Positions 3,251-48,489 of a DNA stretch of 64,000 nt are shown in pieces (position 1 is the first letter of the stretch; each line of letters starts with the position of its first letter). The notes under the pieces were generated by a model. That model was given only the letters and a program-made list of their open reading frames with translations. It did not search any database and had not been told where the DNA came from. This stretch comes from an uncultured Actinomycetota bacterium (GTDB lineage: Bacteria > Actinomycetota > Actinomycetes > CAVWCF01): assembly GCA_963697565.1 (NCBI GenBank), contig CAVOOM010000008.1, positions 125,970-189,969 on the forward strand, in the 5' to 3' direction. The position numbers and the translations under genes are program-made.

Positions 3251-3365
3251 TGTGCCACAGCCTCCGTACGGCGGCCTGCCGCGCGACTTCGCTGCGCAAT
3301 GCCTCGCGCGCCTCTAGATTGGCGAGCCGGTGCGAGGTTCGCCCCCGGATGGCAGAAAGGCACGG

Positions 3366-6300
3366 ATGCCGACCACGACGAGCCACGAGGACGTGGCGGC
3401 AGGTCCGCAGCCGCTTGTCGTCCGGTCAGGGCGGGTCACCGACCGCACCGTGCTGCTGGTCGCCTCGCTCGGGGCCTTCCTCGCCTTCCTCGACGCGACG
3501 ATCGTCAACGTCGCGTTCCCCAGCATCCGGGCGTCCTTCCCGGAGACCTCGATCAGCGAGCTGTCCTGGGTCCTGAACTCATACAACATCGTGTTCGCCG
3601 CGTTCCTCGTGCCGGCCGGGCGGATGGCGGACCTGATCGGGCGGCGCCGGGCCTTCGCCTGGGGCGTCCTGGTCTTCACGGTGTTCTCCGTGATCTGCGC
3701 GGTGGCCCCGACCGTTGAGTGGCTGATCGCGGCCCGAGCGTTTCAGGCCCTGGGCGCGGCGCTGCTCGTCCCGGCCTCGCTGGGCCTGGTCGTCCAGGCC
3801 TTCGACCCCGAGCACCGCACCCACGCCGTCGGCCTGTGGGGGGCATCGGCGGCGGTGGCGGCCGGCCTGGGGCCGCCCGTCGGCGGACTGCTCATCGAGA
3901 TCGGCGACTGGCGCTGGGCCTTCCTGATCAACCTGCCGGTCGGGCTGCTGGCGCTGCTGGCCGCCCGCCGCCAGCTCGTCGAGAGCCGGGCTCCAGGGCG
4001 GCGGACGGTCCCGGACCTGCGCGGAGCGTCGCTGTTCGCGCTCGCGCTGGCGCTGCTCACCACGGCGATCGTCCAGGGCAACGACTGGGGCTGGACCAGT
4101 GTCGGGATCCTGGCGTGCGTGATCGGCGCGGCGCTTGCGCTGGCCGCCTTCGTGTGGAGCTCGCGCCACCACCGATCCCCGCTGCTGGACCCGGCGTTGC
4201 TGCGCATCCGGCCGTTCACCGTCGCCAACGTGGCCACCGCGTTCGCCGGCGTGGGCTTCTACGCGTACCTGCTGGTGAACATCCTGTGGTTGCAGTACGT
4301 CTGGGGCTACAACGTCCTGCAGGCGGGCCTCGCGCTCGTGCCCGGCGCCCTGGTCGCTGCCGTCGTGGCCGCCGTGCTGGGACCGCGGGCAGCGGCTGGC
4401 GGCTACCGGCGGTTCATCGTCCCGGGCGCGCTGGTGTGGGTGGCGGCGTACGCCTGGTACTACAACCAGACGGGGCTGGAGCCGGACTTCCTCGGGGTCT
4501 GGCTGCCCGGCCAGGTGCTCAGCGGGATCGGCGCGGGGGCCGTCCTGCCGCTCCTGGGCAGCGCCGCGCTCGCCTCCGTGCCAGGGGGCAGATACGCGAC
4601 CGCCTCAGCGGTGGTCTCCAGCTCTCGGCAGATCGGCGGGGTGCTGGGGATCGCGCTGCTCGTCGTCATCATCGGCACCCCCGCGCCGGCCACCGCGGCC
4701 GACGACCTGAGGCCGGGGTGGCTGTTCGCCGCCGGTTGCTTCGCCGTGTGCGCGGCGGCGGCGGCCGCCATCGGCCGGATCCCCGAGTCCCGGGTTGAGG
4801 CCGCCGACGAGGGTGACGCGGCGCGAGCCGTGATCCTGCTCCCACGGCGGGGCGAGCCGAGCGATGGCGGTGGGACTGAGGCGCTGCCGCTGCTGGGCCG
4901 CCTCCCGGCGCAGGTCCGATCCGCGCTGGAGGACTCGGCCCGGCAGATCACCCTGCCCGCGGGCGGCTGGCTCATGCGCGCGGGGGACGCGGCGGATTCG
5001 CTGTACCTCGTCACCAGCGGGCGGCTGGAGGTCGTCGTCGACGACGCGGTGGTGCGGGAGTTGGGGCCGGGATCGGCCATCGGGGAGCTCGCGCTGCTCA
5101 CCGGGGGGACGCGATCGGCGTCCATCCGGGCCCGGCGCGACAGCACCCTGGCTGAGATCTCGCGGTCGGTCTTCGACTCGGCGGTCCGCGCGGATCCGGA
5201 GGCGCTCTCGGTGCTCACGCGCGTGCTCGCCGAACAGCTCCAGTCGCCCCAGGCCCCGCAGCTCGCCGTGGGCTCCCGGCCGTCGGTGGTGGCGGTGCTG
5301 GGACTGCACGAGGGCGCGCCCGCCGCGGCGGTCGCGGAGGCGCTCGTCGGTGAGCTCCGGCGCGATCTGACGGTGGCGATCCCAGGCCGGCTGGATGCCG
5401 AGGGGGTGCTGCGCGCAGAACGCGACCACGATCGGGTGGTGCTCGTCGCGGATCTGGCCGACGGCGACGGCTGGCGATTCGCGCTGCGTCAGGCCGACCA
5501 CGTGGTCCTGGTGTCCGGCGACATCGACCCGGCAACCGCCGCCGAGGTGGACCTGCACGGCGCCGACCTGGTCCTGGTTGGGCCCCGCCCGGTGCGCGAG
5601 CGGGTGCGTGAGTGGTCCGAACTGCTGCAGCCCTGGCAGATCACGTACGCGCTCGGCGAGCCGCTCAGCGGGGCGCTGCGGCCCGTGGCCGCGCGCATCG
5701 CCGGCACCTCGGTGGGCCTGGTGCTGGCGGGCGGCGGGGCCCGGGCCTTCGCGCACATCGGGGTGCTGCAGGTCCTGGCCGAGGCCGGGGTGCGCGTCGA
5801 CCGCGTGGCCGGGTGCAGCCTCGGTTCGATCGTCGCCGGCCTGCACGCCGCGGGGCACAGCCCCGAGGAGATCCAGGCGGTCTGCTACCAGGGGTTCGTC
5901 CGCCATTCGCCGTTCAGCGACTACACCCTCCCGACGGTCTCCCTGGCCAAGGGGCGACGGGCCGGGCGCGAGATCGAGCGGCAGTTCGGCGAGGTGCTGA
6001 TCGAGGAGCTGCCGCACCAGTTCAGCTGCGTGAGCACCGATCTGCTCGCCCGCCGCCAGCACGTCCACCGAACCGGGCGGCTCTCCGACGCCATCCAGGC
6101 CTCGCTCGCGCTTCCGGTGCTCTTCCCGCCGCGCCGGTTCGGGCGACCAGCTGCTGGTCGACGGGGGCATCCTCGACAACCTCCCGGTGGGGCTGCTCAC
6201 CGAGCGCGACGAGGGGCCGGTGCTGGCGGTCAACATCGCTATGGGCGGGGGAGGGGGCGGACCGCGCCGCGCGGGGCCGCCGCGGACGCCGCCACTGGGC

Positions 6301-6510
6301 GACACGATGCTGCGCACGATGATGATCGGCAGCGGCGGCGCGGTGGAGACGGCGCTCGCCCAGGGCGCCGCCGTCATCACGCCGCCGCCCATGGGCGTGG
6401 GGCTGCTGGAGTTCCACCAGCTGGACCTCATTGTGGAGACCGGCCGGATGGCGGCTCGCCAGCTGCTGGAGGAGACGGGCGGGTCCTTCCCGGGGACCGC
6501 CTGGGGCTGA
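3366..6510 (+). CDS. DHA2-type MFS transporter fused to cNMP-binding and patatin-like phospholipase domains (frameshift near 6140)
   Basis: LDATIVNVAFP, GRMADLIGRR, WRWAFLINLPVG (MFS); GELALL...RSASIRA (cNMP); LAGGGARA and GCSLG, then DGG in the shifted frame ending at TGA 6510. Confidence 0.9.
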
Positions 6511-6517
6511 GTGAGCC

Positions 6518-7560
6518 TCAGCCCTGCGGCCGAACAGGCGCCTGAGGCGGCCGCCCGAGCTGCCGCCATCGACGCCGCCCACCCCGGCGGCGGCCATCTG
6601 CTCGCGCACGACGGCCTCGGTCACCCGGTCGTACCCGTTCTGCTGCGCGTAGTCCTCGAGGTTGCCGACCGCGAAGCGCCGGACGAAGCGGGGGGCCTTG
6701 GCCACCATGGCGACCGCCTCGTCGTCCCACTCCATGCTGGTCTTCAACCCGGCCTTTGCGGCGGCGTCGGTGATGGCGCCCGCGGCCGCGGCGGCGGAGC
6801 GGGCGGCGGCCTTCGCCTCCCGGTCCTGCTTGCGGGCCCAGTACTCCGACTCGGGGGTGCGGGTGGCCTCGTACAGGCCCTTCACATCCGGCGCCGCGGT
6901 CAGGATCGGCACGAGGTTGTTGGCCCAGCGCGCCGGCACGATGACGAACATCTCGTTGGGGCGCAGCTTGTTGGCCATGCGCCCGCCGAAGTCGCCGGTG
7001 GTGAGGATCACGTTGTCGTCGAAGAACGGCGTGACGAAGGCGTCCGTGCAGAACGACGATCCGGCCGCCGCGCTCGGCTGCACCCCGTCCTCGACGGCCC
7101 GCGCGGCGGCGATCTGCGAGGCCCACACCGGTTCGCAGACGACCACGATCCACTCGACCTCGGCGCCCTCGGGGACCGCGTCGAGCGGCGCCGCGCCGAG
7201 GCCCTTGACCGCGCCGAGCGGCAGCTTGAAGCGGCCGCTGTTGACGGCCAGGCCGGCCTCGTCGGTGTACGCGGAGATGTAGAGCGGCAGCAGCCGGCCG
7301 CTGGCGATGACCTCGGTGCCCTCGTCGAAGCCGGTGAGGAACGAGCCGTGCGAGCAGTCGTGCATCGCGCCGTTCATGTGGACGGCGCGATCCTCGTCCC
7401 GGGCAATGCGCAGGATGCCGCAGGCGTCGACCCGCGGGCTGGTCGCGTACGCGGGGTGGATCTCGTCACGGAAGAGCGTGACCGCCACCGGCTTGCCGCG
7501 GATCTTGCCTTGAAGACCGGCGCAGATCCCCGCGATGTCCAAGGGGGCGCTCTCAGCCAT
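6518..7560 (-). CDS. DUF169-family protein with C-terminal PCP_red-like helical domain
   Basis: N-terminal KPVAV with several Cys (DACG, HDCSHG, SFCTD); C-terminal MEWDDEAVAMVAKAPRFVRRFAVGNLEDYAQQNGYDRVTEAVV. True stop probably TGA at 6518-6520, missed through a 1-nt G-run error. Confidence 0.65.
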
Positions 7561-14367: not shown

Positions 14368-14545
14368 CGAGCCTGGCCACCGCGCGGTCTCGGTCACCGA
14401 GAGTGACCACCGTTGGCTCTGTGCGAGCGAGCGTCGCCGATGGTGACCCGCCCGGGTGACAGCGGGTGACGGGCGCGGCGCGCCGCGGGGAGGATCGCCC
14501 CAGGAGGCCGCCCACCCGGGCGGACGCCGGCGAGAGGACCCCACC

Positions 14546-16479
14546 GTGGCCGCACCGCAGGACGCCAGCAGCCCGACCGACGGCTCGGTGCCGACCCTCC
14601 TCGACTCCCGGCGCGCCGACGTCGGGGTCTCGCGCGAGCGGCTGCGACGCAAGCGGCTGGGCACCATGGCGATCGTGCTGGGGATCCCGGCGGCGTTCCT
14701 GTGGTGGCGGATCCTCATCGGCGACCCGGTCGACTCGCTGCCCATTCCGGACATCGACCCCCTCGTCCTCGTGCCGCTGCTGTTCTTCGCCGCGTTGCTG
14801 GTGCTGTTGCTGGGGACCACGATCGGCGCCGGGCGATCGCCGCACGTTCTCTACCGGCCCGAGCAGATCGACATCACCCTCGACGACGTGATCGGGATTG
14901 ACCCGGTCAAGGAGGACGTGGTCCGCTCGCTCAACCTGTTCCTCGCCCACAAGGCGTTCGCTGACGACATGGGCGGCACCCCGCGCCGCGGCCTGCTCTT
15001 CGAGGGGGCTCCTGGGACGGGCAAGACCCACCTGGCCAAGGCGATGGCCCGCGAGGCGGGGGTCCCGTTCCTCTTCGTCTCGGCCACCAGCTTCCAGTCG
15101 ATGTACTACGGCGCGACCGCGCGCAAGATCCGCTCGTACTTCAAGGAGCTGCGCAAGGCGGCCCGCGCGCGAGGGCGGCGCCATCGGCTTCATCGAGGAG
15201 ATCGACGCGATCGCCACCTCCCGAGGCGGCCTGTCGGCCACCGTGATGCCGGAGTCCGCCCGCTCGACTGAGCTGTGCTGCGGCGGGCTGGAGGGCCTGC
15301 CGGCCGGGTACGCGGTGGCGGCCGCCGGACCGGTGGTGAACCGGTCGATCACCTCCGAGGGTGTGGGCGGCGTCGTCAACGAGCTGCTGGTCCAGATGCA
15401 GTCGTTCGACGAGGTGACCGGCATGCAGAAGTTCCAGGCCAAGTTCGTCGACTGGATCAACCTGTACCTGGCCCCGAACCGGCAGCTCAAGCGGCCGGTG
15501 CCCCCCTCGACCAACGTGCTCGTCATCGCCGCGACCAACCGCGCCGACGCTCTCGACCCGGCCTTGCTGCGACCGGGTCGCTTCGACCGCCGGCTCACCT
15601 TCGAGCTGCCGAGCAAGGCCGCCCGCCGCGAGCTGATCGACCACTTCCTGGCCCGCAAGTCCCACGAGGCCGAGCTGGAGCTCGACGAGCAGCGCGACAC
15701 CCTGGCGGCGGCGACCCAGGGCTACTCCCCGGTGATGATCGAGCACCTGCTCGACGAGGCCCTGATCAACGCGATGCGCCGCGGGGCCCCCGCGATGAAC
15801 CGCCAGGACATCGAGCGGGCCCGGATGGTGGAGCAGGTCGGGATGGGCCAGCCGGTCGCCTACACCGTCCACGAGAAGCGGCTGATCGCCACGCACGAGG
15901 CGGGGCACGCGACCGCGGCGTACCTGGTGGCCCCAGCCCGGCGGATGGAGATCCTCACCATCATCAAGCGCCGCGGGGCTCTCGGCATGCTCGCCCACGG
16001 CGACGTCGACGACGTCTACACCCGCTCGCGCACGGAGATGCTCGGCCTCATCCAGATCGCCCTGGGCGGTCAGTGCGCCGAGGAGATCTTCTTCGGCGAC
16101 GTCTCGACCGGACCCGGGGGGGACCTGCTGTACGCGACCAACGTGGCTGCGGAGATGGTCGGCTCGGTCGGCATGATGGGGACGCTGGTCTCGTACGCGG
16201 CGGTGCAGAACTCGGCCTTCAGCGACACCAACATGGTGGGCCGGGTGCTCGCCGACCCCAACGGGCGCGGCCGTGTCGAGGAGCTGCTGCAGGATCAGAA
16301 GGTCCGGGTCAAGGGGCTGCTCGAGGAGAACGCCCACCTGGTCGAGGCGCTCGCGCGACGCGTTGATGGAGCGGCACGAGCTGATCGGCCGCGAGATCAC
16401 CGATGTGCTGGAGGCCGCCCGCGCGGCGGGCCCGCCGCCTCGAGTGCTCGACCTGCGGGCCACCGTCCAGGCGCCTTAG
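14546..16479 (+). CDS. FtsH-like membrane AAA+ ATPase / M41 zinc metalloprotease paralogue (frameshifts ~15165 and ~16355)
   Basis: Two N-terminal TM segments, GAPGTGKT, IEEID, ATNRADALDPALLRPGRFDR, HEAGH, ALGGQCAEE. Confidence 0.85.
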
Positions 16480-16517
16480 CACTTCAGCGCCGGCCCCTAG
16501 GGGCCGATGACCGGCAC

Positions 16518-17015
16518 GTGGAGTCCGTCGCAGCACCCGACCCGGCCGTCCTCGCAGACGCCCGACCGGCTGTCTGGGTGGGCAGCGGCGTGGTGCTCCG
16601 GCTCGGGTCCGCCCGGTACGTGGTTCCGATGGCGCATGTCGCCGAGGTCGTCCATGTGCCCCGGACGACTCGAGTGCCCGCGTCGCCGGGCTGGCTGGTG
16701 GGGCTCGCCAACTGGCGCGGCCGGGTGCTGCCGGTCCTCGACCTGCGACCCCTCCTCGGCGCCGAGACCGTGCCGCTGGCGACCAGTGCGCGGCTGGTGG
16801 TCCTGACCCTCGACGACGTGGAGGCCGGCCTGCTGGCCGACCAGGTCCCCGGGCCGCTGCCCCAGGCTGAGTGGACGGTGGCCCCGCCGCCGCCCACCGC
16901 CGCCTCCGCGGTGGCGGACCTGTTGGCCGGCGTCTTGCAGGACGACGGGGGCCCGGTCTCGCTTCTGGATGCCGCGGCGGTGCTGTCACTCGGCGCCGAG
17001 GCCGCCGGCCGCTGA
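16518..17015 (+). CDS. cheW: CheW coupling protein
   Basis: VAEVV...TRVPASPGWLVGLANWRGRVLPVLDL...AGLLADQV; the GTG start is my estimate. Confidence 0.88.
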   Translation: MESVAAPDPAVLADARPAVWVGSGVVLRLGSARYVVPMAHVAEVVHVPRTTRVPASPGWLVGLANWRGRVLPVLDLRPLLGAETVPLATSARLVVLTLDDVEAGLLADQVPGPLPQAEWTVAPPPPTAASAVADLLAGVLQDDGGPVSLLDAAAVLSLGAEAAGR

Positions 17016-17076
17016 GGCGGCGGCGTGACGGCATCACCTGTTCGGGCTACAGCCCGGCGGTGCGGCCGCCGATGCC

Positions 17077-18639
17077 ATGTGCATGCAGGTCTCTAAACGG
17101 CTGGTCGCCATCAACTCGGTCGCCATGTGGGGCGGCCTCGCCATGGCGATCGGCGCGGCCTACATCACCGACCGGTTCGTGCTGGCGGCCTCCGTGGAGT
17201 GGGCGGCCTTCTGGGTGTGGGTCGCCGTCAGCGCCCTCGGGGCGGCCCTCGCGACCGCTCTTTCGGTCCGCGCCCTGGGCCGGACCCCCTCACCGCGCCA
17301 GGTTCGCCGGTATACGCAAGGGCTCCTGGTCACCGAGGTCCTGCTCATCACCGCCCTGGCCTGCACGAGCGGCGGCCTGCTCGGCGCCGGCTCGGTCCTG
17401 CTCGCCCTGGTCGTGCTCTTCGCCTCGATGGTCTTCGGGGGCTGGCGGCTCGCGGTCTTCGCCGGGTCGCTGGCCGCCTCGGTCGCCTTCACCGGGTGGT
17501 TCACCGACACCTGGACCGGAAACGCGCTGCCCATCGGCCTCGTGGCCTTGTTGGCGCTGCCGGGCATGGTGCTCATCGACGGCGAGATCAGCGTCTCCGC
17601 GGTCGAGTTGGAGCAGCAGGCCAAGGCCGAGCGCGCCGCACTCGAGGCCCAGGTGCAGCAGCTCTCGGCGGCCTTGGACCGGGCGGCCCACGGGGACCTC
17701 GGCATCACGTCTCCGATTCCCGCCGGCGAGGCGCACGAGGCGATCGCCTCGCTGTCGATGTCCTTCACCAGCACGCTCCACAACCTCAGGCAGCTGGTCG
17801 ACCAGGTCCGGACGGGCGGCGACCAGATCGCCTCCTCGGCCGGCGAGCTGCTGGCGACCGCGGAGGAGCATGCCGCCAGCGCGACGCAGCAGTCGTCGGC
17901 GGTGGCCGAGACGACCTCGACCATCGAGGAGCTCGCCGCGACGGCGGCGCAGATCGCCGACACCTCCGAGGCGGTGGCCCGCTACGCGGCCGACACGCTG
18001 CGATACGCCGAGGACGGCCGGGATGCGGTGTCGGCGTCGGTGGCGGCGATGGACGCGATCGCCTCGCGGGTGGACTCGATCGCGGCGCGGGCGCTGTCGC
18101 TGGGGGAGAAGTCGCAGCAGATCGGGCGGATCCTCGAGGTGATCGACGATCTGGCGGACCAGACGAACCTGCTGGCGTTGAACGCGGCGATCGAGGCGGC
18201 GCGGGCGGGGGAGCACGGGCGGGGGTTCGCGGTGGTGGCCAGCGAGGTGCGCAAGCTGGCGGAGCGCTCGCAGGAGTCGGCGGGGCGGATCCAGACGATC
18301 GTGGCGGAGATCCAGACCGAGACGAACGCGACGATCCTGGCCAGCGAGGACGGCGCCCGCGAGGTGCACGAGGGCTCGCGGCTGGCCCGCGACGTCGTCC
18401 AGGCCCTGGAGCGGATCTCCGGCATGGTCGACGAGACGACCACAGCCGCCCGCGAGATCTCGATCGCCACCCAGCAGCAGCGCTCGGCCTCCGAGCAGGT
18501 GGTCACCGCGATGACCCAGGTCTCCGATGTGTCGCGGCAGTACGCGGTCGGCTCCAACCAGTCGGCCGCCGCGGCCTCGCAGCTGAACGTCCTCGCAGGT
18601 GAGCTGCGGGCGTCGATCGCGCAGTTCCGGACGTCATGA
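17077..18639 (+). CDS. Methyl-accepting chemotaxis protein with polytopic membrane N-terminus
   Basis: About 5-6 hydrophobic segments, a HAMP-like linker, and hairpin tip [37 protein letters not shown]. Confidence 0.95.
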
Positions 18640-20843
18640 ACTGGGCCGACGACCCCGAACTCGTCGCCGGCTTCCGCCAAGAGGTCGAGGAGCGGCTGCG
18701 GTCGCTCTCGGACGGCCTGCTCGCCCTTGAGGGCCACGGTTCTCCGCGGCAGGCGGTGGCTGCCCTGTTCCGCGATGCCCACACCGTCAAGGGAAGCGCC
18801 CGCATGCTCGGGCTCGACGCGGTCGTGGGCGTCGCGCATCGAGCTGAGGACCTGCTGGGGGCTATCCGCGACGGCCGGCTGACGGTGCGCCGCGACCTGG
18901 TGGACGTCCTGCTCGCCGCCACCGAGGGGATCGGGCGGGCCCTGCCCGGGGTGCCTCGCCCGGTGGCCGAGGGCGACCTGGCCGCGCTGGTCGCCGCGCT
19001 GGACGCCGCCCTGGCCGGGGAGGACCCCGTGGCGGTGCCCCGGCTCAGCGCGGCCCCGGCCGACCTGGAGGGCGAGGCCGACGGCGGAGCCGCCGGTCAC
19101 GGCCCGGCGGGCCGCCGCGGCGAGTCCGTCCGCGTGCCGACCCGACGGGTGCACGCCCTGCTCGACGTCGTGGGAGAGGCCGAGCTCGACGCACGCCGGA
19201 TGGAGGGCCGCATCGGCGACCTGTCCGCCTGGGGGGCGGAGCACCGCGAGGTGGTCGACTGGCTGCGCCGCGCGGTGCTCAACGGCGCGGTGTGGGCCGA
19301 CCTGGCGGACGCGGTGCACACCCTGGTGTCGCTTGACGACCGGCTGAACGCCGCCACCCGCGAGCTGCGCAGCGCCAGTGAGGATGCGGGCTCCCGCCTC
19401 GCGCGGGTCCGGGAGGGCGCGATGGGGCTCGCCATGGTCCCGGTCCGCCGGGTCGCGGCCGCCTTCCCGCAGCTCGTCCGGGAGATCGCCGGGGCGACCG
19501 GGAAGGACGTCGCCTTCGTGGTCGACGGCGACGACGTTGAGCTCGACGCCCGGGTGCTCGACGGGGTGGCGGACGCGCTCCGCCACCTGGTCGCCAACGC
19601 CGTGGATCACGGGTGCGAGTCGCCCGAGGCCCGTCGGGCGGCGGGCAAGCCAGCGCAGGCGGTGGTTCGGCTCAGCGCCCGCGCCTCGGGGGCCGTGGTG
19701 GTCATCGAGGTGTCCGACGACGGCGAGGGAATCGACGAATCGGCCGTCCGGGCAGCTGCCGTCACGCGCGGGCTGCTCGCCGAGGACTCCACCCTCTCCG
19801 GCCAGCCACTGCTCCAACTGCTCTTCGCCGCCGGGTTCACCACGAGAGACGAGGTCACCGCCACGTCCGGCCGCGGCGTCGGGCTCGATGTCGTCCGTAC
19901 CGCCGTCGAGGACCTCGGCGGGTCGGTGGCGGTCCACACCGCCCCAGGCGAGGGGACCGCCTTCGTGATGACGCTGCCGGTCACCCTCGGCGTGATGCGC
20001 TGCCTGGTGGCCCGCGTGGGCGACGAGCGGTACGCGCTGCCGACGGCGCATGTCGTTGAGACGTTCGACCTGGCGAGCGTCACCGCGCACTCCGTGGCCG
20101 GGGCCACGGTCGTGGTGCGCCACGGCCTCCAGATCCCGTTGGCCGACCTGGGGCAGGCGGTGGGGGCCCCGGGGGAGCGGTCGCCGCGCGCCGCCGTGGT
20201 GGTGCGCTACGGATCGGCCGACGAGCAGCTGGCCTGGGCGGTGGACGCGCTGGAGTCCGAGCTGGAGCTCGTGGTCAAGGACCTCGGCGGGTTCCTGGGC
20301 CGGCTGCGCCACATCACCGGCGCCACCTTGGATGGCGAGGGCGGGGTGGTGCTGCTCCTTGATGTGCGCGAGCTCGCGCTGTCCGCCCTGGGCCGAGGCG
20401 CCGCCCACCTGCCCGCCGTCCCCGCCGTTGCGGGCGGCGCCGAGGCCACGGCCTCGGCGGCCCCCTCGGGCGCGCGTCCCCGGGTCCTCGTGGTCGAGGA
20501 CTCGATCGGCGTGCGCGAGCTGCAGCGGGTGATCCTGGAGGGAGCCGGCTATGACGTGCAGACGGCGGTCGACGGAGCCGACGGCGCGAGCCGCCTCGCG
20601 GGGGCGCCGGTCGACCTCGTGCTGTCCGATGTCGAGATGCCCGGGATGGACGGCTTCACGCTGACCCGAACCATTCGCCGCACCCGCGGGTGGGAGGACG
20701 TACCCGTGGTGATCATGACCTCGCGAGGCGGCGACGCCGACAAGCGGGCCGGTTTGGACGCGGGCGCCAGCGCGTACCTGCTCAAGAGCGACTTCGATCA
20801 AGCCGAACTCATCAACACGGTGCGCAGGCTCGTCGGCCGATGA
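18636..20843 (+). CDS. cheA: Hybrid CheA histidine kinase (Hpt-dimerisation-HATPase-CheW-REC)
   Basis: [30 protein letters not shown]...SGRGVG, P5 domain, C-terminal receiver VEDS...DVEMP...YLLKSDFDQ; ATGA overlap with the MCP. Confidence 0.95.
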
Positions 20844-20874
20844 CCGAAGCCCCGTGACCCCGCCAGGAGGAGCC

Positions 20875-21843
20875 ATGCCCACAGTCGTCATCGCCGACGA
20901 CAGCCCCACGCTGCGGCGCATCGTGTCGACGGTGCTGGAGCGCGATGGCTTCACCGTCGTGCAGGCCGAGGACGGCATCCAGGCCGTGCAGGCCGTCTTC
21001 GCCCACCAACCAGACGCGGTGGTCCTCGACGTGCAGATGCCCCGGGTGTCGGGGTACGTGGCGGCTCGGGTGCTCAAGGACGACTGGCAGACCGCCGACC
21101 TCCCGGTCCTGCTGCTCACGTCCCTCGATGCCGCGAGCGACCGCTACTGGGGCAGCCAGGCCGGCGCCGACCGCTTCCTCACCAAGGACTTCGAGGCCCC
21201 CGAGCTGGTGGAGGCCGTCCGCGCGGCGATCGCCGCCGCAGACGCCTCCCGCGGGGGCCGCGGCCGGCTCACCCCGGACCCGCTCGAGCTGACCGACGAC
21301 GACGTGTTCGGCCGGGTCTGCGACCTGCTGGACCGCAAGCTCTTCGAGACGGCCATCGCCGCGGAGGTCACCTCGATCGCCGCGGAGGCCAACGGCTTCG
21401 AGGAGTCGGTCGCCGCCGTGCTCGGGGTGCTCACCCGGGTGGTCGACTACGACCTCGCCGCCGTGTGCATGCTCGACGACCTGACGGCCTATCTCTCCGT
21501 CGGGCGGGAGTGCTCGCACCAGCAGTACGGCGAGTTCCTCAACGCGGTGGCAGGCGCGGCGACCCAGGTGGGCGGCGGCGCGGTGGGGGTCGCCGACCTC
21601 ACCCCGCGCATCGCCGACCCGGAAGGCCGCCTCGGGGCCGACGACGAGGGCTCCATGGCCACGTTCCTCTCGATGCCGATGCGGGTGCGCGGCCGCGTGG
21701 TGGGGGTGCTCGCCCTGTCCAGTGCGACGAAGAGCGCCTTCGGGGAGGCCTCGCTGAACACCCTGCGGCTCGTCGAGGGCCCGGCCGCGATCGTCGTCGA
21801 CAACGCGCGGCTGTCGTCGCGCGCCTCGGCTCCGACCGGCTGA
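20875..21843 (+). CDS. Response regulator: PilH-like receiver plus GAF-like domain
   Basis: GGAGG RBS; IADDS...LDVQMP...LLTS...DRYWGSQAGADRFLTK; C-terminal FLSMPMRVRGRVVGVLAL...AIVVDNARL (GAF-like end). Confidence 0.88.
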   Translation: MPTVVIADDSPTLRRIVSTVLERDGFTVVQAEDGIQAVQAVFAHQPDAVVLDVQMPRVSGYVAARVLKDDWQTADLPVLLLTSLDAASDRYWGSQAGADRFLTKDFEAPELVEAVRAAIAAADASRGGRGRLTPDPLELTDDDVFGRVCDLLDRKLFETAIAAEVTSIAAEANGFEESVAAVLGVLTRVVDYDLAAVCMLDDLTAYLSVGRECSHQQYGEFLNAVAGAATQVGGGAVGVADLTPRIADPEGRLGADDEGSMATFLSMPMRVRGRVVGVLALSSATKSAFGEASLNTLRLVEGPAAIVVDNARLSSRASAPTG

Positions 21844-41748: not shown

Positions 41749-42084
41749 GTGTTCGACATCGGGTTCTGGGAGTTCGCCGCCCTGGCCGTGATCGCGCTGT
41801 TCGTCTTCGGCCCCGACCGGCTGCCCAAGGCGGCCGCCGAGGGGGCGAAGTGGCTGCGCGAGATCCGCGCGCTCGCCGTGCAGGCCCGATCTCAGATGAC
41901 CGAGACGCTCGGGCCCGAGGTGGCCGAGGTCGCCTTCGACCCGAAGGGCGCCGTGCGGCGGGCGGTGGTCGACCCGGTGCGCGAGCCGTTCGACGCGGCC
42001 GCCCGCGACGTGCGCGCGACCAGCGACGCACGGCCCGCGGGAGACCCCGCCCCGCGCCCGGTGATCGACCCCGACGCGACCTAG
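41749..42084 (+). CDS. tatB: Sec-independent translocase subunit TatB
   Basis: MFDIGFWE...FGPDRLP...IDPDAT; lies between htrA and mrp. Confidence 0.88.
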   Translation: MFDIGFWEFAALAVIALFVFGPDRLPKAAAEGAKWLREIRALAVQARSQMTETLGPEVAEVAFDPKGAVRRAVVDPVREPFDAAARDVRATSDARPAGDPAPRPVIDPDAT

Positions 42085-43214
42085 CCCGCGGGCGAGATCG
42101 ACAGGCTGAGCCCGGCCAGGCCCCGCTGCCGGCGACCCAGGGCGGTCGCCACCGCGGTCAGCGCCTTGGCGGCCGGAGCGGCCGGATCGGACAGCACCAG
42201 CGGCTGCCCGTCGTCGCCGCCTTCGCGGACGCGCGGGTCCAGCGGCACCTGCGCGAGCAGGGGCACCTCGGCGCCGACGGAGCGGGAGAGCGCGTCGGCC
42301 ACCGTGCGCCCGCCGCCGCTGCCGAAGACGTCGACCACGTCGCCGCAGTGCGGGCACGGGAAGCCGGACATGTTCTCGACGACGCCGGCGATCCGCTGGT
42401 GGGTCTGCAGGGCGATCGTCCCGGCCCGCTCGGCGACCTCTGCGGCCGCGGCCTGGGGGGTGGTCACCACCAGGATCTCGGCCGAGGGCACCAACTGGGC
42501 CACGGAGATCGCGATGTCGCCGGTGCCCGGCGGCAGGTCCATGAGGAGCACGTCGAGGTCGCCCCAGTAGACATCCGACAGGAACTGCTGCAGGGCGCGG
42601 TGCAGCATCGGGCCGCGCCACACCACGGGGGTGTTGCCGGCGGTGAACATCCCGATCGAGATGACCTTCACGCCATGCGCCGCCGGCGGCATGATCATGT
42701 TCTCGACCTGGGTCGGCCGGGCGTGCGCGCCCAGCATCCGCGGGATCGAGTGGCCGTAGATGTCGGCGTCGAGCACCCCGACGCGCAGACCCTGGGCGGC
42801 CATGGCCACCGCCACGTTGACCGTCACCGAGGACTTGCCGACGCCGCCCTTGCCGCTGGCCACCGCGTACACGCGGGTGAGCGAACCGGGTTGGGCGAAG
42901 GGGATCTCGCGCTCGGCCTGGCCGCCCCGGAGCCGGCTGGCGAGGTCGCGGCGCTGCTCGTCGCCCATCACGCCGAGCTCCAGGTCGACGTCGGTCACGC
43001 CCGCAACGGCGCCGACGGCGGCGGTGACGTCGCGGGTGATCGTGTCGCGCAGCGGGCAGCCGGCGACGGTGAGCAGGACGACGACCCGCACCCGCCCGCT
43101 GGCGTCGACCTCGACGGTCTCGACCATGCCGAGGTCGGTGATGGGCTGGTGGATCTCGGGGTCCTGGACGGCCGACAGCGCGGCGTGGACCTGCTCGACG
43201 GTGGGCGTGGGCAT
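42081..43214 (-). CDS. mrp: Mrp/NBP35 Fe-S cluster carrier ATPase
   Basis: DPEI, GCPL, ASGKGGVGKS, WRGPM, DLPPGTGD, ENMS..CPHC. Confidence 0.93.
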   Translation of the reverse strand: MPTPTVEQVHAALSAVQDPEIHQPITDLGMVETVEVDASGRVRVVVLLTVAGCPLRDTITRDVTAAVGAVAGVTDVDLELGVMGDEQRRDLASRLRGGQAEREIPFAQPGSLTRVYAVASGKGGVGKSSVTVNVAVAMAAQGLRVGVLDADIYGHSIPRMLGAHARPTQVENMIMPPAAHGVKVISIGMFTAGNTPVVWRGPMLHRALQQFLSDVYWGDLDVLLMDLPPGTGDIAISVAQLVPSAEILVVTTPQAAAAEVAERAGTIALQTHQRIAGVVENMSGFPCPHCGDVVDVFGSGGGRTVADALSRSVGAEVPLLAQVPLDPRVREGGDDGQPLVLSDPAAPAAKALTAVATALGRRQRGLAGLSLSISPAG

Positions 43215-43258
43215 GCGGTCCAGGCTACGGCCGGCCGCCGCGGACACCAATCGGGCGC

Positions 43259-44986
43259 TCAGCCGCGGGTGGCCCGCAGCACCTCTTCGTACGTCGTCTC
43301 GCCGCGCGCGGCCACGGCCAGGGCGTGCTCGCGCAGCCGCTGGAGGCCAGTTGCGGCGGCCGCCGCGGCGAGCGCCTCCTCGCCGCCGCCGATGGCATGG
43401 CGCACGACGGGCGTGACCTCCAGCACCTCGAACACCCCGCGCCGCCCGCGGTAGCCCGAGCCGGCGCAGGCGGGGCACCCGTCACCGCGCCGGGGGGTGG
43501 CGCCGGCGAGCGACTCCCGGCCGAGCCCCAGCCCCGCGAGGACCGCGTCGGGCGGCTCGTACGGGCCGGAGCACGAGGGGCACGGCTGCCGGACCAGGCG
43601 CTGGGCCACGACGAGCGACAGCGAGGAGGCAACGAGGTAGGGCTCGACGCCCATGTCGACCAGGCGGGTCAGCGCCCCGGGCGCGTCGTTGGTGTGCAGG
43701 GTGGTGAGCACGAGGTGGCCGGTCAGCGCGGCCTGCAGGGCGAGCTCGGCGGTCTCGCTGTCGCGGACCTCGCCCACCATGACGACATCGGGGTCCTGCC
43801 GCAGCACCGCGCGCAGCCCGCGCGCGAAGGTCATCCCGCTGCGGGGGTGGACGGCGACCTGGGTGATCCCCGGCAGCTGAAGCTCGATCGGGTCCTCGAG
43901 GGTCACGACGTTGACCTCGGCGGTGAGCACGCGGGCCAAGGCGGCGTAGAGCGTGCGGGTCTTGCCCGAGCCGGTCGGCCCGGTGATGAGCACCAGGCCC
44001 TGGGGTGCGGCGAGGACGCGTTCGACGATGTCCAGCTGCGCGGCGGCCAGCCCCAGGGTGGCGAGCGGCTGCACCGCGGAATCGGTCGCGAACAGCCGAA
44101 GGACGACCTTCTCGCCGTGCAGCCCGGGCAGGGTGCTGACGCGGGCGTCGACCGCGGTTCCGTCGACGGCGATCCGGGCTCGGCCGTCCTGCGGGATCCG
44201 CCGCTCGGCGATGTCCAACCCGGACAGGATCTTGAGCCGGCTGACCACGGCGGCCGAGGTGCCCTTGGGCAGCAGCATCACGTCGCGCAGCACCCCGTCG
44301 ACCCGGTGCCGGATCCGCAGCCCGTCGCGCTGCGGCTCGACATGGAGGTCGCTGGCCCCCTCGCGCACGGCTTCGGCCAGCATGGCGCTGACCAGGCGGA
44401 CCGTCGGGGCGTCGTCGACGGCGGAGCGCAGCGCCCGCTCGTCCAGCGGCGGCTCGTCGGACTCATCGGCCATCGCGGTGATGTCGAGGGACTCATCGGT
44501 CAGGGTCCACAGCCGACGCAGGTGGTCGCGCACCTGGGTCTCGGTCGCCACCACCACGTCGACGTCGTGCGCCCCGGTGTGCAGCCGCACATCGTCGAGG
44601 GCGACCACGTTGGTGGGGTCGGCGGCGGCGACCCGGACGGCCCGCCCCACCAGGGCGAGCACCACGATCTGAGCGCGCTCGGCCACGGCTCGGGGCAGCA
44701 GCCGGGCCACGTCCGGCTCGACGGTCTCCCGGCTCAGGTCCACCACGGGCAGCCCGAGCAGGTCGCCCAAGGCCACCGCCAGGGAGTGCTCGTCGAGGAC
44801 GCCCTCGTCGATGAGGATCCGCCCGAGCCGGCGGCGCGGGGAGCCGTCCTCGACCTGCTCGGCGAGAGCCTCGTCGAGGCGCTCGGGGGTCAGGTGCCCG
44901 CGGGCGACCAACACCTCGCCCAGGCGCCTGCGCAGCGCCGAGTCACGCCGCCTCAGGGCAGGCCGGTCGGGCGCGACTGCGGTCAC
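43259..44986 (-). CDS. PilB/GspE-family secretion/pilus assembly ATPase with MshEN N-terminal domain
   Basis: RLGEVLVARGHLTPERLDEALAEQ, ASDLHVEP, ERRIPQDG, GPTGSGKT, TLEDPIE, RQDPDVVMVGE, TGHLVLTTLHTN, CPSC/CPAC. Confidence 0.92.
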   Translation of the reverse strand: MTAVAPDRPALRRRDSALRRRLGEVLVARGHLTPERLDEALAEQVEDGSPRRRLGRILIDEGVLDEHSLAVALGDLLGLPVVDLSRETVEPDVARLLPRAVAERAQIVVLALVGRAVRVAAADPTNVVALDDVRLHTGAHDVDVVVATETQVRDHLRRLWTLTDESLDITAMADESDEPPLDERALRSAVDDAPTVRLVSAMLAEAVREGASDLHVEPQRDGLRIRHRVDGVLRDVMLLPKGTSAAVVSRLKILSGLDIAERRIPQDGRARIAVDGTAVDARVSTLPGLHGEKVVLRLFATDSAVQPLATLGLAAAQLDIVERVLAAPQGLVLITGPTGSGKTRTLYAALARVLTAEVNVVTLEDPIELQLPGITQVAVHPRSGMTFARGLRAVLRQDPDVVMVGEVRDSETAELALQAALTGHLVLTTLHTNDAPGALTRLVDMGVEPYLVASSLSLVVAQRLVRQPCPSCSGPYEPPDAVLAGLGLGRESLAGATPRRGDGCPACAGSGYRGRRGVFEVLEVTPVVRHAIGGGEEALAAAAAATGLQRLREHALAVAARGETTYEEVLRATRG

Positions 44987-45043
44987 GGAATGGTTGTCGG
45001 CCGGTCCGGCCGCCGGGTGAAGCGCCCAGCGCGTCGGAGCAGA

Positions 45044-45679
45044 TCAGCCGGCAGGGGGCTCGGCGGCCTTGGCCGCCTTGGCGGCGGCCTTGGCCGCCTC
45101 CTCCTGCGCTCGTGCGGCGGCCTTCTCGGCCCTGGCCCGAGCGGCGTCGCGGCGGCGCTTGCGCTCCTTCTTGCGCTTGCGCTCGGCCTCGGCCTGCTCC
45201 TGGAGCAGCTCATCGAGCAGATCGCGGAACTCGGCGCGGACGAAGTCGCGGGTGGCGACCTCGCCGAGGCCCTGGCGCAGGCCGGCCAGCTCGCGGGTGA
45301 GGTAGTCGGCGTCGGCGATCAGCCGGTCGGTGCGGCTGCGGTCCTCGGCGAAGGTGACCCGGTCGCGGTCGGTCTGCCGGTTCTGCGCGAGCAGGATCAG
45401 CGGGGCGGCGTACGAGGCCTGCAGCGACAGCATCAGGGTCAGGCCGATGAACGGCCACGGGTCGAACTTCCAGTCGTCCGGCGCGAAGACGTTCCACAGC
45501 ACCCACGACGCGACGAACGCCGACATGTAGCCGATGAACCGCCAGGAGCCGATGAACCGGGCGATCCGCTCGGACGCGGCGTTGAACCGCTCGGGGTCGA
45601 CGGTCGGCCGCGCCATCCGGCGCGGCTCGTACGGCTGGTCGAGGCGGGGGCCACTCGCGCGGCGGCGGTCACGCGCCAT
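45044..45679 (-). CDS. DUF1003 membrane protein
   Basis: FDPWPFIGLTLMLSLQASYAAPLILLAQNRQ. Confidence 0.9.
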   Translation of the reverse strand: MARDRRRASGPRLDQPYEPRRMARPTVDPERFNAASERIARFIGSWRFIGYMSAFVASWVLWNVFAPDDWKFDPWPFIGLTLMLSLQASYAAPLILLAQNRQTDRDRVTFAEDRSRTDRLIADADYLTRELAGLRQGLGEVATRDFVRAEFRDLLDELLQEQAEAERKRKKERKRRRDAARARAEKAAARAQEEAAKAAAKAAKAAEPPAG

Positions 45680-46961
45680 CGTCGGCCGCCTGTCGGGCGG
45701 CCTCGGCCGCTTCGTCGGCGAGCTCGGTCTCGCGCCAGTCCTCGGGCAGCATGTGGTCGATCACGTCGTCGACGGTGACGGCGCCCAGGAGGTGCCCGCC
45801 GGGGTCCACGACGGGCAGGGCGACCAGGTTGTACGTGGCGAAGTAGCGCGTGACGGCGCCGAGCGGGGCCTCCGGTCCGACCGCCTCCAGGTCGGTGTCG
45901 ACGACGGCCGACACCAGCGTCGACGGCGGCTCACGGAGCAGCCGCTGGAAGTGGGCCACGCCGAGGAAGCGCCCGGTGGGCGTCTCCAGCGGCGGCCGTA
46001 CGACGTAGACCTGCGAGGCGAGCGCGGGGGAGAGGTCGGAGTTGCGAATCCGCGCGAGGGCATCGGCGACCGTGGCGTCGGGCGACAGCACCACCGGCTC
46101 GGTGGTCATCAGGCCGCCCGCGGAGTAGTCGTCGTAGCCGATCAGGCGGCGGACGTCCTCGGCCTCCTCGGGCTCCATCAGATCGAGGAGCTCCTGGGCC
46201 TGCTCCGGGGGCAGCTCGCGCAGCAGGTCGGCGGCGTCGTCAGGCCCCATGGCCTCGAGCACGTCGGCGGCGCGCTCCTCCTGCAGGGCGGCCAGGATCT
46301 CGACCTGCTCGTCCTCGGGCAGCTCCTCCAGCACATCGGCGAGCTTCTCGTTGTCGAGGGCCGCGGCGACCTCGGCCCGCCGCTTCGCCGGGAGGTCCTG
46401 CAGGGCGCTGGCGATATCGGCGGGTCGCAGCTTCTCGAACGACGCCACCAGGCTGTCGGCCGCCTGGTCCTGCTCGTCGTCGGAGAGCCCGACAAGGCCG
46501 TCCCACGCGACGGTGAGGGTCTCGCCCCGGCGGCGGAAGCCGCTGCCGCCGCGGCGCACGAACACCTTGACGAGCAGCCAGTCGCGCGCCTTGTCCTGCT
46601 CCATCGCGGTGTCGATGATGGTGACCGGGCTGCCGGAGGGGTCGCCTGCGAGGTGGGCCTTGCGGTCGACGATCTCGCCGATCACCAGCCGTTCGTTGCC
46701 CCGCTGCTCGAAGCGGCGCATGTTGACGACGCCGGTGGTCACGATCTGGCCGGGATCGATCGAGGTGACCCGCAGGATCGGGACGAAGATGCGCCGCCGC
46801 ATCGGCACCTCGACCACCAGGCCGAGCACCCGCGGGGGGAGCCCCGGGCCCCGCAGCGCGACGACGACATCGCGCAGCCGCCCGACCTGGTCGCCGTTCG
46901 GGTCGAACACCGAGGCGCCGGCCAGGCGCGCGATGAAGACCCGGGGGGCCGCGCCGGACAT
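45669..46961 (-). CDS. MgtE N-terminal / CBS domain protein (no transmembrane part)
   Basis: PRC-like N-terminus, acidic helical repeats (LADVLEELPED), AGGLMT, VTVDDVIDH. Confidence 0.9.
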   Translation of the reverse strand: MSGAAPRVFIARLAGASVFDPNGDQVGRLRDVVVALRGPGLPPRVLGLVVEVPMRRRIFVPILRVTSIDPGQIVTTGVVNMRRFEQRGNERLVIGEIVDRKAHLAGDPSGSPVTIIDTAMEQDKARDWLLVKVFVRRGGSGFRRRGETLTVAWDGLVGLSDDEQDQAADSLVASFEKLRPADIASALQDLPAKRRAEVAAALDNEKLADVLEELPEDEQVEILAALQEERAADVLEAMGPDDAADLLRELPPEQAQELLDLMEPEEAEDVRRLIGYDDYSAGGLMTTEPVVLSPDATVADALARIRNSDLSPALASQVYVVRPPLETPTGRFLGVAHFQRLLREPPSTLVSAVVDTDLEAVGPEAPLGAVTRYFATYNLVALPVVDPGGHLLGAVTVDDVIDHMLPEDWRETELADEAAEAARQAADDGA

Positions 46962-47095
46962 GTGCGCAGGGTAGCGGGGCGCCGGTCCTGAGCGCGGATG
47001 TGACACCGCTCCCGGTGCCGCCGGCGAAAGCTGATGCGGCCCATGCCATCGCCGCGGCACGATGGCCTCGACCACTCCGCAGTGGAAGGCATCCC

Positions 47096-48489
47096 ATGGC
47101 TCTCAAGCACCCCCATGGCCCCGCGCGCTCGGCTGACGACCTGGCCGTCCAGACCGTCTTCACGCTTGAGGGGGACCGCATCCCCGACACCGGCTGCCGG
47201 ACGCCGAGCTCCCGCCCGATGTGGCGTACCAGATCATCCACGACGAGCTGATGCTCGACGGGAACGCGCGGATGAACCTGGCCACGTTCGTGAGCACCTG
47301 GATGGAGCCGCAGGCCGAGCAGCTGATGGCCGAGTGCCTCGACAAGAACATGATCGACAAGGACGAGTACCCGCAGACCGCGGAGCTTGAGATGCGGTGC
47401 GTCAACATCCTGGGCCATCTGTGGCACGCCCCCGACCAGGGGGACGCCGTCGGCTGCTCGACGACCGGGTCCAGCGAGGCCGCCATGCTCGGGGGCCTCG
47501 CTCTGAAGCGCCGCTGGCAGCAGAGGCGGAAGGCCGAGGGCAAGACCGTTCGACCGGCCCAACCTGGTCATGGGCATCAACGTCCAGGTCTGCTGGGAGA
47601 AGTTCGCCAACTACTGGGATGTCGAGATGCGTCTCGTCCCGATGCAGGGCGAGCGGTACCACCTGTCCGCCGAGGAGGCCGTGAAGCTCTGCGACGAGAA
47701 CACCATCGGCGTGGTCGCGATCCTCGGGTCGACCTTCGACGGCTCGTACGAGCCGGTCGCCGAGATCTGCCAGGCGCTCGACGCGCTTCAGGCCAGCACG
47801 GGGTGGGACATCCCGGTCCACGTCGATGGGGCCTCGGGCGCCTTCGTGGCGCCCTTCATCGACCCCGACCTGCCCTGGGACTTCCGGCTTCCGCGCGTCT
47901 CGTCGATCAACGCGTCCGGGCACAAGTACGGGCTGGTCTACCCCGGCGTCGGATGGATCGTCTGGCGGGACGCCGCGGCCCTTCCGGAGGACCTGATCTT
48001 CTGGGTCAACTACCTCGGCGACAACATGCCGACCTTCGCGCTCAACTTCTCGCGGCCGGGCGCCCAGGTAGATCGCTCAGTACTACAACTTCCTGCGGCT
48101 CGGGTTCGACGGCTATCGCAAGGTGCAGCAGATACTCGCGCTCGGTGGCGACCCGGCTGTCGGCCCAGATCGCCGAGCTCGGGCCGTTTGAGTTGATCAC
48201 GAAGGGCGACGAGCTGCCGGTGTTCGCCTTCAAGCTCAAGCCCGGCATCGACAACTACACGGTCTTCGACGTCTCGAACTCCCTGCGTGAACGTGGCTGG
48301 CTGCTGCCGGCGTACTCCTTCCCGGACGACCGCACCGACCTGGCTGCCCTGCGGGTGGTGGTCAAGATGGGCTTCACCCACGACATGGCCGACCTCCTGG
48401 TCAAGGACATCCAGCGGCAGCTGCCCCACCTGCAGGCCCAGCCGGCGCCGATCCGTGACGCCTCGAACTCGTCGGGCTTCCACCATTGA
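47096..48489 (+). CDS. gadB: Glutamate decarboxylase; about four frameshifts (~47200, ~47550, ~48070, ~48130), possible pseudogene
   Basis: [50 protein letters not shown] (PLP Lys), LNFSRPG. Confidence 0.88.

Follow-up and report, generated by a model that had tools for sequence, protein, structure and literature searches.

We analysed a 64,000-nucleotide stretch of DNA (hereafter the window) from an uncultured actinomycete, positions 125970-189969 of contig C8 of genome G000, which comprises 2.84 Mb in nine contigs and is 88% complete. GC content is high along the whole stretch (about 0.69-0.78). Four genes of a chemosensory system lie side by side in it: cheW1, encoding a coupling protein; mcp1, encoding a chemoreceptor (methyl-accepting chemotaxis protein, MCP); cheA, encoding a hybrid histidine kinase; and a gene for a response regulator composed of a receiver (REC) and a GAF domain, here called REC-GAF (Table 1). 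These genes are likely to be the core operon of a complete, non-flagellar pathway of the ACF (alternative cellular functions) type, similar to the Wsp system of Pseudomonas, with its parts distributed over at least three loci of this small high-GC genome.

Table 1 Positions of the genes and features discussed in the text (window coordinates unless another locus is named)
Feature	Position	Strand	Remarks
FtsH-like AAA+/M41 protease paralog	14456-16479	+	Two N-terminal transmembrane (TM) helices, intact HEAGH motif; between mshB and cheW1
cheW1, coupling protein	16518-17015	+	165 aa from GTG 16518, start uncertain; Pfam CheW, E = 8e-28
mcp1, chemoreceptor	17077-18639	+	MCPsignal, E = 6e-47; about six TM segments, no sizeable outside domain
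mcp1, polytopic sensor region (residues 1-176)	17077-17604	+	Hydrophobic windows 9-27, 34-67, 83-130, 147-176
Block shared by mcp1 and mcp2	18010-18375; G000:C8 about 67.3-67.7 kb (L097)		
cheA, hybrid kinase	18636-20843	+	Hpt 8-97, HATPase_c 312-450, CheW 456-580, Response_reg 617-729
CheA receiver (residues 617-729)	20484-20822	+	Response_reg, E = 6.8e-24
REC-GAF response regulator	20875-21843	+	322 aa; Pfam; receiver, long helix, GAF
PilB-like ATPase	43262-45043	-	MshEN + T2SSE, E = 4e-126
cheR-TPR	L006:10887-12716 (contig C3)		CheR domain, E = 7e-40, and TPR matches
cheB	L006:12448-13497 (contig C3)	-	Intact esterase triad, degenerate receiver

Domains were assigned by Pfam scans of the open reading frames (ORFs) of the window, which confirmed the identities of the four che genes. 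All four run in one direction, and the ATGA at 18636-18639 joins the stop codon of mcp1 to the start codon of cheA, as an earlier note on this DNA had described. The same note had characterised CheA as a hybrid kinase without an evident P2 domain, and the scan agrees, as neither P2 nor H-kinase_dim gave a match: the protein consists of a histidine phosphotransfer (Hpt) domain, a dimerisation region, a HATPase domain, a single CheW domain and, at the C-terminus, a receiver. His49 lies within the motif HTVKG, the N, G1 and G2 boxes are intact, and the receiver retains E621/D622, D665, T695 and K717. MCP1 was correctly recognised as polytopic, with about six hydrophobic segments between residues 9 and 176. 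This sensor region gave no significant match to a Pfam family, and the cytoplasmic residues 227-293 gave a weak, sub-threshold match to DUF948 (E = 0.00058, 20.4 bits).

The ORF of the response regulator was scanned as 20854-21843 and matched Response_reg at residues 11-123 and GAF at residues 183-317. Its true start is probably the ATG at 20875 rather than 20854, because an AGGAGG sequence is found 6 nt upstream and homologues begin with MPTVV at this point. In the resulting numbering the receiver residues D8/D9, D52, T82 and K104 are intact. No enzymatic, DNA-binding or GGDEF domain was detected by Pfam in the 322 aa. No CheR, CheB or flagellar family was detected among the scanned ORFs of the window (sets of 8, 10 and 31), as previously noted. 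The operon had also been placed between mshB and vanW. The vanW gene indeed follows REC-GAF after only 190 nt, but an FtsH-like gene separates mshB from cheW1.

Remaining parts of the pathway and their conservation

The genome carries cheB and cheR at one place each, both on contig C3, in the order cheB, cheR with C-terminal TPR repeats, and a second coupling gene, cheW2. CheW domains occur at three places in the genome, namely cheW1, the P5 domain of CheA, and cheW2 beside cheR; together with the lack of a second tblastn match to the kinase core, this indicates a single CheA. With the cheB-cheR pair on C3 and the two CheWs, the genome holds the full parts list of a Wsp-type system, split over loci. 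Five orthologs share the esterase triad motifs of CheB (GASTGG, QHM and GMGRDG) without change. In the N-terminal receiver of CheB the acidic pair, the Thr and the Lys are all missing and only an invariant Asp66 is left; the domain score, 22.9 bits, is below the cut-off of 30.2. Four orthologs from other families show the same loss. Because this receiver is degenerate, the usual control by phosphorylation probably does not apply to CheB. By contrast, the CheB encoded in an operon of a different actinomycete (L093, described below) has a normal receiver (E = 2e-21).

Two MCPs are encoded in the genome. MCP2, whose gene is located 76 kb upstream on contig C8 among sulfur amino-acid genes, combines an outside domain with a single TM helix. 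The signalling domains of MCP1 and MCP2 are 72% identical, and around the kinase-binding tip they share 122 identical residues, 363 of 366 bases being the same. This block looks like the product of gene conversion, by which the two receptors would both stay fitted to the single kinase. Six methylation-consensus motifs are found in MCP1 and seven in MCP2. The stretch after the hairpin tip is 141 residues (20 heptads) long in both receptors, so that the 40H class is argued from length only. In the alignment MCP1 has the same length as the model of CtpM, which we take to be a 40H receptor, and is about 31 aa longer than the models of E. coli receptors.

Thirteen receiver domains were found in the genome. 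Since none of them lies in an open frame shorter than 241 aa, no single-domain CheY is evident among these 13 places, in line with the absence of a stand-alone cheY reported before. The only regulator dedicated to the pathway is REC-GAF. FlhA, flagellin and FliG_C were searched for in the 88%-complete genome and were not found. Four GGDEF proteins scored above the family cut-off.

A locus survey, in which one genome per species was scanned, yielded 80 loci, and CheA is at least 45% identical in 65 of them. These 65 loci belong to metagenome-assembled genomes (MAGs) of actinomycetes (labelled Sporichthyaceae, Frankiaceae/Frankiales, Nanopelagicales, Mycobacteriales etc.) save one, the cultured strain Longivirga aurantiaca (L031). 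The neighbours of cheA were counted by a script over assessable loci only. REC-GAF was found within 400 nt downstream in 57 of 60 loci, an MCP gene directly upstream in 43 of 46 (with up to five tandem MCPs in some), cheW upstream in 42 of 43, the FtsH-like gene upstream in 35 of 39, and vanW downstream in 28 of 49. In the three loci counted as lacking REC-GAF (L027, L057 and L094) a REC-GAF match is present further downstream. The order of the four che genes, the conservation of which the earlier note had proposed to map, is thus widely kept and is far from a chance arrangement.

We also surveyed 300 genomes sampled evenly from the class, with G000 excluded from the counts and orthologs called at E <= 1e-100 for CheA and E <= 1e-110 for the pilus retraction ATPase PilT. 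These genomes are related to one another and the counts are not independent; seven of them are flagged as unpublished (the CheA carriers G032 and G261, and G008, G024, G030, G036 and G043), and no claim is made on those alone. A CheA ortholog was present in 112 genomes. CheR was found in 108 of these 112 carriers and in 42 of the 188 non-carriers, and FlhA in 17 carriers and 33 non-carriers, which leaves 95 carriers without FlhA. The GTDB order of the host consists of only three genomes, and the system is present in all three. In G086, G109 and G058 cheB adjoins cheR at a distance of hundreds of kilobases to megabases from cheA. The split layout is therefore old. With the cheB-cheR(TPR)-cheW2 cluster on C3, the methylation motifs of MCP1 and the presence of CheR in nearly all carriers, the earlier description of the operon as stripped-down and adaptation-less has to be abandoned.

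Class assignment and comparison with known systems

The classes ACF, Tfp and F5 are those of the scheme of Wuichet and Zhulin. PMC3447774 gives CheR-TPR and multidomain regulators as marks of ACF, names GAF among the output domains, and describes CheR-TPR as almost absent from Gram-positive bacteria. The 40H receptors are assigned to ACF in PMC10746217, and F5 kinases are described as having two CheW domains, and Tfp kinases mostly several Hpt domains, in PMC10782961. According to both sources, F5 with 38H receptors is the usual flagellar class in the later actinobacterial classes. Five features of the present system fit ACF: the hybrid CheA, which lacks P2 and has a single CheW domain, the CheR fused to TPR (at the C3 locus, outside the window), the two CheWs, receptors of apparent 40H length, and the multidomain regulator, which directly follows cheA and is kept there in 57 of 60 loci. 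The lack of a flagellar tie, typical of ACF, also holds, with flagellar markers not found in the 88%-complete genome and FlhA not found in 95 of 112 carriers. The single CheW domain of CheA, the apparent 40H length of the receptors and the missing flagellar markers all depart from F5, and with one Hpt domain, no single-domain PilG/PilH regulators and no linkage to pil genes the system also departs from Tfp. The note's description of a non-flagellar Wsp-like operon with a hybrid CheA and a REC-GAF protein is therefore supported by the architecture. It had regarded CheA of a flagellar class, together with cheR, cheB and flagellar genes elsewhere, as the sign of ordinary chemotaxis; cheR and cheB do lie elsewhere, but flagellar genes were not found and the CheA architecture is not that of F5.

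The Wsp pathway of Pseudomonas (WspA-F and WspR), the model of the ACF class, is non-flagellar like the window system and shares with it a dedicated membrane receptor, two CheWs, CheR-TPR, CheB and a CheA that lacks P2 and ends in a receiver. In the regulators of both systems a helical stalk links the receiver to another domain. Unlike WspR, which is of the REC-GGDEF type, the window regulator ends in GAF and belongs to a clade of stand-alone REC-GAF proteins. The window system further differs from Wsp in that its genes are split over separate loci, its receptor lacks a periplasmic domain and crosses the membrane with six helices, its CheB receiver is degenerate and its host is a Gram-positive actinomycete. 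Matches of CheA to Pseudomonas proteins were not used as a sign of kinship with WspE, as five of the six cover only residues 1-577/590 and leave out the receiver.

A counterpart may exist in Acidothermus cellulolyticus. The main text of PMC10746217 names ACF in six species and, in the part consulted, does not discuss its function; ACF sets of three Actinoplanes species and of A. cellulolyticus are tabulated in its Table S3. The set of strain 11B, as listed there, likewise belongs to an actinomycete and comprises one CheA, two CheWs, CheB and CheR. To judge from the accession numbers, CheA lies with one of the CheWs, and the second CheW is located elsewhere, together with CheB and CheR, which is the same split. 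Unlike the window's host, Acidothermus also has an F5 set and flagella, and the table does not include the regulator. Pil-Chp and the cyanobacterial Tax/Pix systems, which are of the Tfp class, resemble the window system in that their hybrid CheA has a receiver but lacks P2; the window's host has type IV pilus genes, and flagellar markers were not found in it. The window system differs from them in its single Hpt domain, in having no single-domain PilG/PilH or PATAN regulators, and in the absence of pil linkage.

A further relative is found in a lower-GC actinomycete MAG (L093, 5614-14549), which has the whole set in one operon: cheW, an MCP gene with a class-40H sensor and HAMP, cheA:REC, cheB, a REC-GAF-GGDEF gene and cheR-TPR, followed by an SLT transglycosylase gene. 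Its regulator occurs in the same operon context as REC-GAF; the REC-GAF modules are 35% and the CheA-REC proteins 37% identical. Unlike the L093 regulator, the window protein stops after GAF and sits in the separate stand-alone clade.

We propose the following course of signalling. MCP1 would sense via its six membrane helices and MCP2 via its outside domain, and both receptors would control the autophosphorylation of CheA at His49. From there the phosphoryl group would pass to Asp52 of REC-GAF as the output, and also to Asp665 in CheA's own receiver, which may serve as a sink or modulator. CheR-TPR and CheB would reset the receptors by methylation and thereby provide adaptation. Phosphorylated REC-GAF, having no effector domain, would most likely work via its helical stalk and GAF domain, either on a separate partner protein or by binding a small ligand.

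Several points weigh against this reading. We infer the output step as a whole. The view that cheB, cheR and cheW2 on C3 serve the window CheA is drawn from co-occurrence and from the presence of a single CheA in the genome. The retained Asp66 could still allow phosphorylation of the CheB receiver. The ACF assignment is based on architecture, gene content and receptor length, and the Acidothermus set was likened to ours by its listing and accession numbers. Finally, because the genome is 88% complete, missing genes are no proof of absence.

The earlier note had suggested that such a system is little described. In literature on chemosensory systems, ACF, REC-GAF and type IV pili in these lineages we found no functional or descriptive account save the ACF listings of PMC10746217, which include Acidothermus; the suggestion is supported as far as function is concerned. 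The ACF class and REC-GAF-type regulators are already known, and an apparently equivalent Acidothermus set has been tabulated. What seem to be new are the spread of the system in non-flagellated actinomycetes, the conserved split layout with the degenerate CheB receiver, and a stand-alone REC-GAF clade tightly paired with CheA-REC. The system occurs in more than a third of the class genomes sampled, mostly without flagella, and is strongly conserved, with a simple two-domain output protein. Its function is directly testable, since one carrier, Longivirga aurantiaca, is in culture and the layout in Acidothermus seems to be the same. Chemosensory pathways that do not control motility are known; to our knowledge, the target has been established for few of them, and no such pathway has been investigated in an actinomycete.

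The REC-GAF family and the possible output

Homologues of REC-GAF number more than 1000. Among the best 120 listed, length is about 320 aa, Pfam matches are confined to REC and GAF, and identity is 70-98%. Identity remains at 70-76% across many lineages, a sign of strong selection. An AlphaFold2 model (pLDDT 89.4) shows the receiver, a long helix (residues 148-178) and the GAF domain. The top Foldseek matches of this model were a REC-GAF dual-sensor histidine kinase (6oap) and WspR (3bre), the latter match spanning the full length but with a large root-mean-square deviation.

A profile search of 1.84 billion representatives returned stand-alone REC-GAF proteins of 314-334 aa as well as fused forms. 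All 13 scanned fused forms of 475-517 aa are REC-GAF-GGDEF proteins, and the other scanned forms carry a cyclase (2), PP2C (3), a histidine kinase (3), an HD domain (1) or a CheR domain (1); in the CheR-bearing form (P0191, 797 aa) a REC-GAF-like module is joined to the CheR domain. In a quick maximum-likelihood tree of 55 rows, midpoint-rooted only and thus read with no claim on the direction of change, all 24 stand-alone REC-GAF proteins, including that of the window, fall into one clade (SH-aLRT 99). The other 31 rows group apart (SH-aLRT 99), and those scanned carry GGDEF, cyclase, PP2C or kinase domains; the 31 include eight unscanned rows of about 490 aa and three of 357-410 aa without an established effector. 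We considered whether REC-GAF is a recent truncation of a GGDEF protein and rejected this, given the well-supported stand-alone clade and the lack of a close fused form. The lone fused exception among the longer relatives is a 765-aa protein with 49% identity and an unrelated domain.

The pairing of CheA-REC with a stand-alone REC-GAF recurs in a distant subclade, the members of which are 36-56% identical and for which 80 metagenome loci were fetched. Among the 45 loci with enough upstream DNA, CheA is directly upstream in 37, and three more (L169, L171 and L174) have cheW-cheA-cheB-RECGAF-cheR in one cluster; the remainder are one locus with cheA on the opposite strand and four distant ones without cheA. 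Six loci of this second lineage were annotated (L105, L118, L129, L135, L148 and L153). In all six pcrA lies downstream of the cheA:REC and REC:GAF genes, in a pcrA/sucCD neighbourhood. Upstream, guaA is present in L118, L129, L135 and L153, preceded in three cases by an IMPDH-like gene, and a cytochrome c gene in L148; the upstream region of L105 is outside the scan. No cheW or MCP gene was found beside the pair in the annotated loci. A small soluble kinase with HisKA and HATPase domains is encoded directly after REC-GAF in three of the six and is a candidate partner of REC-GAF. Because this second, distant lineage also pairs the two proteins, the pairing is general and not a quirk of the host genome.

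It is conceivable, and we put it forward tentatively, that the stand-alone REC-GAF proteins form a dedicated, as yet unnamed family of chemosensory outputs that are always paired with CheA-REC, and that in non-flagellated actinomycetes, though devoid of an enzymatic domain themselves, they signal to a partner, which might be the motor of type IV pili or, in trans, a kinase or a cyclase. In that case many supposedly non-motile and mostly uncultured soil and freshwater actinomycetes would gain a receptor-driven, adapting behaviour that has so far been overlooked.

Two more specific outputs deserve consideration, each of them rather unlikely when taken alone. The first is that the pathway, in the manner of Tfp systems, steers type IV pili (twitching or pilus dynamics), in which case phosphorylated REC-GAF would act on PilB, PilT or a polarity factor. 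Contig C7 carries a type IV pilus locus with pilB (MshEN + T2SSE), pilT, pilC, two prepilin-like genes and pilD. The statement of the earlier note that motility genes are lacking thus holds for flagella but not for pili, the more so as the window itself encodes a PilB-like ATPase. A PilT ortholog was found in 88 of the 112 CheA carriers against 56 of the 188 non-carriers, some PilT match at E <= 1e-60 is present in 110 of the 112, and most carriers have no flagella. In addition, the REC-GAF receiver is 41-43% identical to the receivers of receiver-MshEN-T2SSE (PilB-like) fusions of about 750 aa (P0136-P0156). The pil locus, however, is on a separate contig from the che operon and holds no che or receiver gene. 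PilT is also far more widespread than the che system; in one small-genome family it occurs in all eight members and the CheA ortholog in one. Because the surveyed genomes are related, the association may reflect shared descent. As stated above, the regulator is not of the single-domain PilG/PilH type, and CheA carries a single Hpt domain instead of the several usual in Tfp kinases; the names 'PilG/PilH' attached to some REC-GAF homologues are automatic labels from a single source.

Two observations on the pilus genes may be added here. The PilB-like ATPase gene of the window lies between a gene of the Mrp/ApbC ParA type (42084-43481) and genes with DUF1003 and MgtE-N/CBS domains (45047-47102), and no pilin or platform genes adjoin it. 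Just upstream of pilB on C7 there is a small P-loop GTPase-like gene (L096, 8092-8760, plus strand) with an ATP_bind_1 match and a weak Ras match, which may recall switches of the MglA/CvnD type.

The second possible output, to which we assign about the same low probability as to pilus control, is that REC-GAF acts in trans on a signalling enzyme, for instance a diguanylate cyclase, histidine kinase or phosphatase, so that the signal would run, as in Wsp through WspR, through a second messenger or a phosphorelay to an end point in the envelope or biofilm. The nearest fused relatives of REC-GAF are enzymes, with GGDEF in every scanned form of 475-517 aa, and in L093 a REC-GAF-GGDEF protein occupies the same operon position. 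The soluble kinase gene that follows REC-GAF in half of the annotated second-lineage loci points the same way, as do the four GGDEF proteins of the genome. MshEN domains, which bind c-di-GMP, are present in both PilB-like ATPases. The vanW and FtsH-like genes are frequent neighbours of the operon. Against this, the operon has no gene for such an enzyme next to it in the window, vanW follows in just 28 of the 49 loci that could be assessed, and many genomes that lack a CheA ortholog nevertheless have the FtsH-like paralog.

The target is not flagella. Since flagellar markers were not found and only 17 of 112 carriers have FlhA, the system is not ordinary chemotaxis, and it is most improbable that the operon is a fragment of flagellar chemotaxis or a decaying relic: cheB and cheR elsewhere in the genome and the few carriers with FlhA would suit such an origin, but the one CheW domain of CheA is unlike actinobacterial F5 kinases, all catalytic and phospho-acceptor residues are intact, and REC-GAF is highly conserved over many lineages. 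Under the preferred reading of a complete ACF-type pathway, the partner of REC-GAF would reveal how a regulator without an effector transmits a chemosensory signal, and would also tell whether the hosts steer pili or remodel their envelope on membrane signals.

Neighbouring genes

The frame of cheW1 is open back to 14898, giving a 705-aa ORF (14898-17015) with AAA, AAA-lid, M41 and CheW matches, which at first sight suggests a fusion of FtsH and CheW. This fusion was rejected. In the assembly the FtsH-like gene is split across three frames, and both frame shifts are 1-nt insertions relative to L016, in CGCGCG contexts near 15166 and 16353; after the second shift the frame runs on into cheW1. 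The orthologs of the FtsH-like gene are single frames of about 650-700 aa, and the gene has its own stop codon, TAG at 16477-16479, 38 nt before cheW1. The reference L016 is itself a MAG with 95% DNA identity and has single-base indels of its own in mshB and cheW. The frame shifts are probably assembly errors and less probably real pseudogenisation.

The FtsH-like paralog was found in 138 of the 300 class genomes, including many without a CheA ortholog, for example in seven of eight members of one family. Because it is present in families without the CheA ortholog, we regard it as a conserved neighbour and rejected it as a part of the system.

Further upstream in the window, at 3318-6542 on the plus strand, one open frame has MFS_1, cNMP-binding and patatin matches in series, and represents either a fusion or adjacent genes joined by another frame error.

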